Source: Escherichia coli
GTDB lineage: Bacteria; Pseudomonadota; Gammaproteobacteria; Enterobacterales; Enterobacteriaceae
Assembly (NCBI RefSeq): GCF_024502345.1
Contig: NZ_JALDNN010000001.1
DNA: 64,000 bases
Direction: 5' to 3' (one strand)
The translations under genes were made by a program, and so were the position numbers. The notes below the pieces were generated by a model. The model searched no databases and had not been told where the DNA came from. It saw only the letters and a program-made list of their open reading frames with translations. Shown piece by piece: positions 17,762 through 20,084 of this stretch. The number at the start of each line of letters is the position of its first letter. The stretch's first letter is position 1.

Positions 17762-18772
17762 ATGAAGGCTGCAGTTGTTACGAAGGATCATCATGTTGAC
17801 GTTACGGATAAAACACTGCGCTCACTGAAACATGGCGAAGCCCTGCTGAAAATGGAGTGTTGTGGTGTATGTCATACCGATCTTCATGTTAAGAATGGCG
17901 ATTTTGGTGACAAAACCGGCGTAATTCTGGGCCATGAAGGCATCGGTGTGGTGGCAGAAGTTGGCCCAGGTGTCACCTCATTAAAACCAGGCGATCGTGC
18001 CAGCGTGGCGTGGTTTTACGAAGGATGCGGTCATTGCGAATACTGTAACAGTGGTAACGAAACGCTCTGCCGTTCAGTTAAAAATGCCGGATACAGCGTT
18101 GATGGCGGGATGGCGGAAGAGTGCATCGTGGTCGCCGATTACGCGGTAAAAGTGCCAGATGGTCTGGACTCAGCGGCGGCCAGCAGCATTACCTGTGCGG
18201 GCGTCACCACCTACAAAGCCGTTAAACTGTCAAAAATTCGTCCCGGTCAGTGGATTGCTATCTACGGTCTTGGCGGTCTGGGTAACCTCGCCCTGCAATA
18301 CGCGAAGAATGTCTTTAACGCGAAAGTGATCGCCATTGATGTCAATGATGAGCAGTTAAAACTGGCAACCGAAATGGGTGCAGATTTAGCGATTAACTCA
18401 CGCACCGAAGACGCCGCCAAAATTGTGCAGGAGAAAACCGGTGGCGCTCACGCTGCGGTGGTAACAGCAGTTGCTAAAGCTGCGTTTAACTCGGCAGTTG
18501 ATGCTGTCCGTGCAGGCGGTCGTGTTGTGGCTGTCGGTCTGCCGCCGGAGTCTATGAGCCTGGATATCCCACGTCTTGTGCTGGATGGTATTGAAGTGGT
18601 CGGTTCGCTGGTCGGCACGCGCCAGGATTTAACTGAAGCCTTCCAGTTTGCCGCCGAAGGCAAAGTGGTGCCGAAAGTCGCCCTGCGTCCGTTAGCGGAC
18701 ATCAACACCATCTTTACCGAGATGGAAGAAGGCAAAATCCGTGGCCGTATGGTGATTGATTTCCGCCGCTAA
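17762..18772 (+). CDS. adhP: Zn-dependent alcohol dehydrogenase, propanol-preferring
   Basis: 336-aa [14 protein letters not shown]... with the zinc-ADH GHEGIG motif and the catalytic and structural Zn cysteines. Confidence 0.93.
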
Positions 18773-18917
18773 GAGGCCTTTGCTGCGACTGCCATGTTCG
18801 GGTCGCAGCATCGCACACTCTCCAACATGAAATGGCTAAATGGATTATTGTTGCGTAGGAAGGAACAATAATGATAGTGTTCCCAGAGAAGGAACGCTAC
18901 TGAGAGTAAAGACACTA

Positions 18918-19202
18918 ATGAAAATGGCCAATCATCCCCGCCCGGGGGACATTATTCAGGAATCACTGGACGAACTTAATGTCAGCCTGCGCGAGTTTGC
19001 CAGAGCAATGGAAATTGCTCCCTCAACGGCAAGCCGATTGCTGACAGGAAAAGCAGCTTTGACGCCAGAAATGGCAATTAAACTTTCCGTGGTGATCGGC
19101 AGTTCGCCGCAAATGTGGCTGAATCTGCAAAACGCCTGGAGTCTGGCAGAGGCAGAAAAAACGGTGGATGTGTCGCGATTACGCCGTCTGGTTACGCAAT
19201 AA
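18918..19202 (+). CDS. yddM: HigA-like XRE-family HTH protein (orphan antitoxin-like)
   Basis: 94-aa [45 protein letters not shown]... with an HTH motif. Confidence 0.8.
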
Positions 19203-19253
19203 AAAAATGGCACCTTATAAAGCGCCATTTGAAACTGATGACAAATGCAACAT

Positions 19254-19370
19254 TGCCCGATGCGCTACGCTTATCAGGCCTACACGTTCACTGCAATCTA
19301 TTGGATTTGAACGGTTTGTAGGCCGGATAAGGCGTTCACGCCGCATCCGGCATGAACAAAGCCTACGTTG
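19254..19370. repeat. BIME/REP cluster between yddM and fdnI
   Basis: Two inverted REP units (tgcccgatgcgctacgcttatcaggcctaca and gtaggccggataaggcgttcacgccgcatccggca). Confidence 0.75.
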
Positions 19371-19430
19371 TCTACAATATGAAAATGACGCCTTTTACAG
19401 CGCCATTTTCAGCTTAAAGTTCAAAAGAGA

Positions 19431-20084
19431 TTATATCCCTTCTTCACTCTCTTTTTTCGCTTCTGCCTTCTCGATTTCACGATACCAGCGCGGATGGTGT
19501 TTCTTCGCCCAGCGACGGCTCACCTTCCCTTCGATCATCCCTTTAATCGATCCTTTCACCCAGAATGCCATATACATATGGATCAGGATGGCGTGGATCA
19601 GGATGATACCCGCAGCCGCGTGGATCAGCAGGCTATAACGGACAACCTGCATCGGGAAGTACTGCGCAAAGTACGGACGCCAGATAATCACCCCGGTCAC
19701 CAGCAGCACGAAAATCATGCTCATGATCGACCAGAACATCATCTTTTGCCCGGCGTTGTACTTACCGACATCCGCCACTTTGTGCTCATTGCCTTTCAAT
19801 ACTTCGACAATGTTCAACAGCCACGGAATATCTTTCTTATCCGGGATGTTGTGATGCACAAAACGCACAAACATAAACATCAGCGCGACGAAAATCGCAA
19901 TGCCGAAGAACGGGTGCAAAATGCGTCCCATCTGCGGCGTACCGAAGGTTTGCGTCAGCCATTGCAGCGTCGGGAAGAAGAACGAAATCCCGGACAGCGC
20001 CACCAGGAAGAAGCAAATCACCACGGTCCAGTGACAGGCGCGATCAATAAATTTGGTGCGCACAATCATTTTCGACTTACTCAT
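19431..20084 (-). CDS. fdnI: Formate dehydrogenase-N gamma subunit (cytochrome b556)
   Basis: Start at [22 protein letters not shown] (217 aa); polytopic haem-binding membrane subunit. Confidence 0.92.

Follow-up and report, generated by a model that had tools for sequence, protein, structure and literature searches.

A BIME-1 element between two diverged copies of a putative terminator palindrome at the yddM-fdnI junction of Escherichia coli

The short interval between the convergent genes yddM and fdnI of Escherichia coli most likely holds one BIME-1, placed between two diverged copies of what was formerly a single 28-nt palindromic intrinsic terminator common to the fdnGHI operon and yddM. 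The two palindrome copies are named here H1 (yddM-side hairpin; 19204-19230) and H2 (fdnI-side hairpin; 19382-19409), and all positions refer to the analyzed stretch of 64,000 nucleotides (the window) unless another genome or locus is named.

The gene order in the window is maeA, adhP and yddM (the last on the plus strand), followed by fdnI, fdnH and fdnG on the minus strand (list of open reading frames and RefSeq annotation), and the flanking genes, yddM and fdnI, were confirmed by the RefSeq annotation of near-identical E. coli genomes. The stop codons of these two convergent genes are 228 nt apart, and that of yddM (TAA; 19200-19202) starts the A-run of H1. Scanning of positions 18700-19700 yielded no sigma-70-like promoter, and an Rfam scan of the region detected no curated RNA family, the sub-threshold hits being naRNA4 (REPs) and ES036 (linker). 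A literature search for fdnI and yddM together returned nothing relevant. Within the coding region of yddM, published Term-seq data (Adams et al., 2021) place a strong 3' end at MG1655 position 1552652 (minus strand), 31 nt into the ORF and directly after a GC hairpin, CCCCGCCCGGGGG, equivalent to window positions 18933-18948 at the 5' end of yddM. This 3' end may be that of adhP transcripts, which would then overlap the start of yddM.

A repeat search distinguished a 34-nt direct repeat (19197-19230 and 19375-19408; 82% identity, spacing 178 nt), each copy of which is itself a hairpin (inverted repeats 19205-19230 and 19380-19411). H1 and H2 differ at 4 of 26 positions. The pattern AAAATGGCGC-N8-GCGCCATTT, with up to three mismatches allowed, matches both hairpins on both strands and has one further weak site in the 64 kb (chance expectation 0.04); none of 100 shuffles reached 5 matches. 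The features of the interval and of the flanking genes are collected in Table 1.

Table 1. Features of the yddM-fdnI interval and the flanking genes (window coordinates).
Feature	Position	Strand	Basis
yddM CDS, HigA-family antitoxin, 94 aa	18918-19202	+	ORF list; RefSeq annotation of matching genomes; tblastn
H1, yddM-proximal palindrome copy, A7-TGGCACCTTATAAAGCGCCA-TTT	19201-19230	both	repeat search, terminator scan, RNA fold
BIME-1 (RIP/RIB-type), 144 nt: terminus, Y REP, L linker, Z-type REP, terminus	19231-19374		alignment to other copies
Left non-REP terminus, GAAACTGATGACAAATGCAACAT	19231-19253	+	kept across BIME-1 copies; inverted-repeat-like with right terminus
Y-type REP (palindromic unit; presumed type), oriented to end in CCTACA	19254-19284	+	inverted repeats, alignment
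L linker, 32 nt, homologous to linkers of other BIME-1 copies	19285-19316		alignment
Z-type REP, TGTAGGCCGGATAAGGCGTTCACGCCGCATCCGGCA, inverted relative to the Y REP	19317-19352	+	inverted repeats, exact match, alignment
Right non-REP terminus, TGAACAAAGCCTACGTTGTCTACAAT..	19353-19378	+	alignment to other copies
H2, fdnI-proximal palindrome copy, GAAAATGACGCCTTTTACAGCGCCATTTTC	19379-19410	both	sequence, repeat search, RNA fold
fdnI, formate dehydrogenase-N gamma subunit, last gene of the fdnGHI operon	19431-20084	-	ORF list, annotation

On sequence grounds, the insert is an ordinary, complete BIME-1, whose composition, size and long linker match the published descriptions (PMC3333891; PMC1187871). 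It occurs as one copy of 144 nt, extragenic and at the 3' end of an operon, the size of BIME-1 being quoted as 140 bp (PMC1187871). Column-by-column alignment with three other copies revealed inverted Y and presumed Z1 units, the inverted REP doublet of the REPIN layout, where Z1 is assigned by the long-linker context. The Z-type REP begins with TGTAGG and contains an exact GTAGGCCGGATAAGGCG at 19318, while the REP at its other side is presumably of the Y type, judged by the consensus of Bachellier and Ton-Hoang. The two halves of the element are mutual inverted repeats out to the TG..GACAAA termini. Alignment with the copies located at uvrB-yvcK, at entD-fepA and beside an rpn gene defined the conserved non-REP ends of the family, GA(A/G)ACTGATGACAAAYGCAA... 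and ...CACTTTGTCTNCAAT. Among 5426 complete E. coli genomes, those without this insert at the yddM-fdnI junction contain full-length matches (positions 1-143; ~85% identity) elsewhere.

The boundary between the right terminus and H2 is ambiguous by ~4 nt, because CAAT(A) is also present at the yddM end. The inclusion of CAATA in the duplication was considered and rejected as ambiguous, CAAT being the BIME-1 right terminus in other copies; in Escherichia albertii the family terminus CAGATTG is retained beside H2. The linker carries an IHF-like core, ATCCAATAGATTG (19294-19306, minus strand), with 2 mismatches to WATCAANNNNTTR, and this core is more degenerate here than in other BIME-1 copies (at least 2 mismatches versus 1). 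The binding of IHF at this copy is uncertain, and the supplements of a 2021 IHF study do not mention the yddM-fdnI locus. The one-unit allele of E. coli OkiPb01705 (L004:615-625) has lost the 5' half of the Z-type REP through an 18-nt deletion (TGTAGGCCGGATAAGGCGT); BIME-1 is decaying in some lineages.

The locus exists in E. coli as an allelic series of zero, one or two units. Among the 5426 complete genomes, the empty allele is present in 2273 (~42%; junction-specific query), the one-unit allele, as in the window, in ~2069 (~38%), and the two-unit allele, including that of K-12, in ~977 (~18%); these are counts of genomes, not of gains and losses. The empty allele is exactly 178 bp shorter than the one-unit allele and reads CAATAAAAAAATGGCGCTTCTTAAAGCGCCATTTTCAGC between yddM and fdnI, which is a single perfect 28-nt palindrome (hairpin AAAATGGCGCTTCTTAAAGCGCCATTTT). 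The allele of K-12 consists of two tandem 178-nt units, 95% identical, and thus of three hairpins and two BIME-1 copies. The locus is still polymorphic, both the occupied and the empty state persisting in E. coli. Empty alleles with a disrupted sequence to the left of the hairpin made up ~13% of the rows sampled. In E. coli strain 405 (L003:504-1216), IS200C is inserted in the A-run between the stop codon of yddM and a single hairpin, and the hairpin and its T7 run are intact on the fdnI side.

The polarity of this change was read from the fdnI loci of 80 enterobacterial species. A single hairpin follows fdnI in Salmonella arizonae, Salmonella diarizonae and many Citrobacter species, several of these hairpins sharing the stem AATGGCGC...GCGCCATT. 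The convergent arrangement of yddM and fdnI is found in Citrobacter too, and in Citrobacter sp. FP75 fdnI is followed by a single hairpin and then directly by yddM. Closer to E. coli, the lone hairpin of Escherichia sp. MOD1-EC7003 matches that of the E. coli empty site exactly, and E. albertii and a further Escherichia lineage (L011) have one unit, with an orthologous BIME-1. No more than 4 substitutions separate any of the eight distinct hairpin variants from the empty-site hairpin. The core of the latter (GGCGCTTCTTAAAGCGCC) is shared without change by four E. coli strains and MOD1-EC7003, and is no chimera of H1 and H2, from each of which it has at least 3 differences. Because the outgroups are single-hairpin, the variants stay close to the empty hairpin and the empty hairpin is not an H1/H2 chimera, the comparison establishes the single hairpin, at the level of sequence, as the ancestral state, and shows that the arrival of BIME-1 was accompanied by the duplication of precisely this palindrome. 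The presence of the same arrangement in E. albertii and the differences between H1 and H2 (4/26 positions) demonstrate that the event is old.

An earlier note, made from the window sequence alone, had described two similar segments bracketing a pair of inverted REP units, and suggested that the BIME had inserted into, or duplicated, a pre-existing terminator. On careful comparison the segments do align (82% over 34 nt), its coordinates are right to within 1-2 nt, and the REPs lie between them as described (Table 1). The suggested origin is strongly supported by the 2273 empty sites and the single outgroup hairpins; in the strains without the REP units, which the note had proposed for comparison, a single perfect hairpin and exactly 178 bp less were found.

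Several other rearrangements were observed around the fdnI hairpin. REPs, single or paired, were independently acquired just downstream of it, with no duplication, in S. diarizonae, C. sedlakii, C. braakii, C. youngae and C. gillenii (L010, L014, L019, L023, L025 and L026; about 2700-2800). In MOD1-EC7003 (L007:2720-3210), ~500 nt with an apparent ORF starting ATGCGTATACGCCCT... separate the single fdnI hairpin from yddM; remodelling of the fdnI-yddM junction has therefore taken several forms. Enterobacter sp. R1 (L078:2875-3140) carries just downstream of fdnI a short array that looks like a CRISPR, in which 29-nt repeats (ATTTCTAAGCTGCCTGTACGGCAGTGAAC) recur at spacings of 60 or 87 nt. In a metagenome-assembled genome labelled uncultured Raoultella (L027:2680-2700), unrelated sequence apparently interrupts the loop of the fdnI hairpin, possibly as another insertion into the same hairpin.

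Flanking repeats were searched for at 3 other E. coli BIME-1 copies and at 9 distinct metagenomic loci, with mismatched flanks as the null, and were absent (best score among the 12 loci 9; 99th percentile of the null 8.3). The duplication of a hairpin as a general feature of BIME-1 was rejected, 0/12 other loci having a flanking repeat above the null. Among the 80 enterobacterial fdnI loci, only one other duplicated terminator was found, in C. amalonaticus AUH_CA_2023_1 (L012:2676-2861). Downstream of fdnI, this strain has the hairpin CAGGCGCTACTCCGGTAGCGCCT twice, as a perfect repeat of 22-23 nt around a 140-nt insert; in a related strain (L013) the hairpin is single and the insert absent. 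The 140-nt element lacks a canonical REP, has the termini of BIME-1 at both ends (CAGAYTGYTGACAAAG ... GTTTGTCATCASTCTC) and carries an IHF core that fits the consensus perfectly. It has no match in E. coli and no further copy among the loci searched. The insertion in C. amalonaticus is an event independent of that in Escherichia, and in both cases the duplicated host segment is the palindrome, of 28 nt in Escherichia and of 22-23 nt in Citrobacter (a few end bases are ambiguous).

The duplication may also have arisen apart from the insertion itself, either as a tandem terminator into which BIME-1 came later, or through two one-side insertions that recombined within the element. The lack of flanking duplications at the 12 other BIME-1 loci and the REPs beside an undoubled fdnI hairpin in the Salmonella and Citrobacter species named above argue for such a course, as does the fact that IS200/IS605-type Y1 transposition, a suspected relative of REP mobilization, makes no target duplication (PMC3333891). 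We nevertheless regard it as unlikely, since no hairpin-hairpin allele and no one-sided BIME allele was met among the sampled E. coli, and the same end-state in C. amalonaticus, with its perfect 23-nt repeat, suggests a single recent event.

If the insertion did duplicate the palindrome, the course that we would guess at is a cut at each foot of the palindrome and subsequent fill-in. Because the duplicated segment equals the palindrome in both Escherichia and Citrobacter, a more specific model can be proposed tentatively, although we hold it to be rather improbable: the hairpin-length duplication would be the footprint of a BIME-1-type insertion through a structure-directed nuclease. A hairpin-recognizing HUH/Y1 enzyme, e.g., TnpA-REP, would cut the same hairpin foot on both strands, leaving a stagger as long as the palindrome that would then be filled in. 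If this holds, REP/BIME insertion would genuinely target terminator palindromes, and the locus would provide a natural comparison of the states before and after insertion, relevant to the still unsolved spread of BIMEs.

Traces of exchange between the hairpin copies were found in several strains. In E. coli O157:H7 F6321 (L089:254-290), H1 has an H2-type core (GGCGCCTTTTACAGCGCC), which is consistent, as a sequence pattern, with gene conversion between the two copies; in the same strain the A-run is shorter and the penultimate codon of yddM is changed from ACG to GCG. O99:H6-type strains have the left (A7) flank of H1 in front of H2, and the middle hairpin of K-12 is of the H2 type, as unequal H1/H2 exchange predicts. 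H1 and H2 would thus serve as short direct repeats for unequal recombination and gene conversion, and their exchange would give both the series of zero, one and two units and the mixed hairpin variants.

Recombination of this kind could equally be imagined to run in the opposite direction, the occupied arrangement being ancestral and the empty allele a deletion of one unit between H1 and H2. Direct repeats of ~30 nt can mediate deletions, copy number does vary at the locus (1 and 2 units) and E. albertii has the occupied allele. This course is nonetheless very unlikely: the empty hairpin core, being at least 3 positions away from H1 and from H2, is not the chimera of the two, it is identical in the four E. 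coli strains and MOD1-EC7003, and Citrobacter and Salmonella as a rule have a single hairpin, in one case adjoining yddM directly.

Two further explanations can hardly be upheld. Convergent genes often have a terminator each, and A-tract/GC-stem/T-tract designs look alike, but independent yddM and fdnI terminators that became similar by convergence would scarcely share 82% identity over 34 nt, loops included and in direct orientation (chance expectation 0.04), or show gene conversion and an empty allele exactly 178 bp shorter. That the hairpins are the terminal repeats of a longer composite BIME moved in one piece would fit the tandem repetition of the hairpin and BIME unit in K-12, but is almost precluded by the other full-length BIME-1 copies, which end at the same termini without such a hairpin, and by the hairpin standing by itself both at the empty site and in other genera.

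The insertion of BIME-1 between two hairpin copies bears on transcription termination in both directions. The ancestral (empty-site) hairpin is equally stable when folded from either strand (-16.2 and -17.6 kcal/mol), has a U4 tract at one side and a U7 tract at the other, and on these predicted folds is a plausible bidirectional terminator shared by fdnGHI and yddM. In the allele of the window, H1 folds with -13.6 kcal/mol (z -5.4) in the fdn sense (minus strand) versus -8.2 kcal/mol in the yddM sense (plus strand), and H2 with -18.1 versus -11.5 kcal/mol, respectively. On the minus strand, H1 forms an 11-pair stem, including two G.U pairs, followed by U7; the stem of H2 has 13 pairs, G.U pairs among them, and is followed by UUUUCAUAUU. 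In the yddM sense, both stems contain A.C mismatches, the core stems reach -4.2 and -2.4 kcal/mol, and the tails are UUUGAAAC and UUUUCAGC. A GC-rich stem-loop followed by a U tract, the hallmark of intrinsic terminators, is therefore present in the fdn sense and absent in the yddM sense. The sole match of a terminator scan was H1 on the minus strand (19230..19205; T7), and none was obtained on the plus strand. Terminator scores, calculated with a rough formula and modern energy parameters, were positive in the fdn sense only (H1 +24; the common H2 variant +5, borderline) and strongly negative in the yddM sense.

The same asymmetry was observed among the hairpin variants. Every stem change is a transition, read as G·U in fdn-sense RNA and as A·C in yddM-sense RNA, and over the eight variants 93.2% of the stem cells are paired in the fdn sense versus 83.0% in the yddM sense. 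All variation is confined to one arm of the hairpin. The asymmetry is based on three columns of the stem among related sequences, in which no compensatory double change occurs, and could have its source in a mutational bias.

For this allele, the duplicated pair H1/H2 is predicted to be the terminator of the fdnGHI operon. The hairpins would still terminate fdnGHI transcripts, H2 being met first and H1, with its U7, acting as a strong back-stop, and BIME-1 would lie in the 3' untranslated region of fdn read-through RNA. In the yddM sense they would be poor terminators, so that transcription would run on antisense to fdnI, where Rho would stop it. The fdnGHI operon is anaerobic and nitrate-induced. 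In published data, no Term-seq 3' end is present in the intergenic region of K-12 (searched over MG1655 positions 1551990-1552499) under three aerobic conditions, fdnGHI being unexpressed aerobically (Adams et al., 2021; PMC7815308). The same study contains a region of Rho termination at K-12 position 1551885, on the yddM-sense strand and inside fdnI, where the reads fell from 71 upstream to 10 downstream in the absence of bicyclomycin and numbered 89 and 116, respectively, in its presence; the Rho score is 9.25, though it is computed from 800-nt windows and bicyclomycin can unmask other transcripts (PMC7815308). As no 3' end lies at the hairpins and the Rho region is within fdnI, these data suggest that yddM-sense transcripts of K-12 pass the hairpins and depend on Rho.

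The earlier note had read the hairpins as a bidirectional terminator for yddM and fdnGHI. The part concerning H1, a hairpin plus TTTTTTT on the minus strand, agrees with the terminator scan, and bidirectionality is credible for the ancestral hairpin, but it would not extend to the yddM sense of this allele. The RNA folding of both strands and the 3'-end mapping that it had named as checks gave strong folds in the fdn sense and weakened ones, with A.C mismatches, in the yddM sense, and the published K-12 data speak against termination at the hairpins in the yddM direction, an outcome of the kind that the note had counted as refuting.

In comparison with known systems, the insert resembles the BIME-1/RIP/RIB elements of the literature (Gilson, Bachellier and Hofnung; Oppenheim, 1993; Boccard and Prentki, 1993; summarized in PMC3333891 and PMC1187871) in its inverted Y and Z-type REPs, long conserved linker, length of ~140 bp and end-to-end alignment, as well as in being extragenic, located at the 3' end of transcription units and present or absent between isolates. 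BIME-1 elements are described as single copies with no target repeats, whereas here a duplicated 28-nt host palindrome flanks the element and, in K-12, the hairpin and BIME-1 unit is in tandem. The empty-site hairpin, A7-GGCGCTT-CTTA-AAGCGCC-T4, with its equal folds on both strands, is like a bidirectional intrinsic terminator; the allele of the window differs in being split and asymmetric, both copies being fully paired only in the fdn sense, with the U7 tract staying with H1 and the U4 tract with H2, and in the apparent Rho dependence of yddM-sense termination in K-12. With MITEs, BIME-1 shares TIR-like termini (TG..GACAAA) and, at this locus, a flanking host direct repeat. The target duplications of MITEs are typically short, whereas the repeat here is a whole 28-nt palindrome and the 12 other copies have none. 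A MITE-type insertion was rejected (0/12 other loci repeat-flanked; lengths of 28 versus 22-23 nt), and reviews state that REPs lack MITE signatures (PMC3184786). As in the amplification of BIME-2 (Ton-Hoang, 2012; PMC3333891), the number of tandem units varies by strain and the copies are near-identical (95% in K-12). Unlike in BIME-2, the 178-nt unit includes a non-REP host terminator and joins in the hairpin rather than in a REP or linker; because the joins lie in the hairpin, this points to recombination between hairpin copies, and not to TnpA(REP)-type amplification, behind the tandem units.

The element is a known kind of E. coli repeat in a typical place, the 3' end of an operon, with an unusually clear history of insertion. 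The features specific to this locus are the palindrome-length duplication, the polymorphism of zero, one and two units and the parallel in Citrobacter. The natural series at one convergent gene pair can serve in studies of how a BIME-1 and a duplicated terminator affect termination, read-through, mRNA stability and the antisense transcription of fdnI. The locus also indicates that a once-bidirectional terminator can turn effectively one-directional after duplication, the other direction apparently being left to Rho. The rare duplication of a whole hairpin, which occurred independently again in Citrobacter, is a possible clue to the mechanism of REP/BIME insertion.
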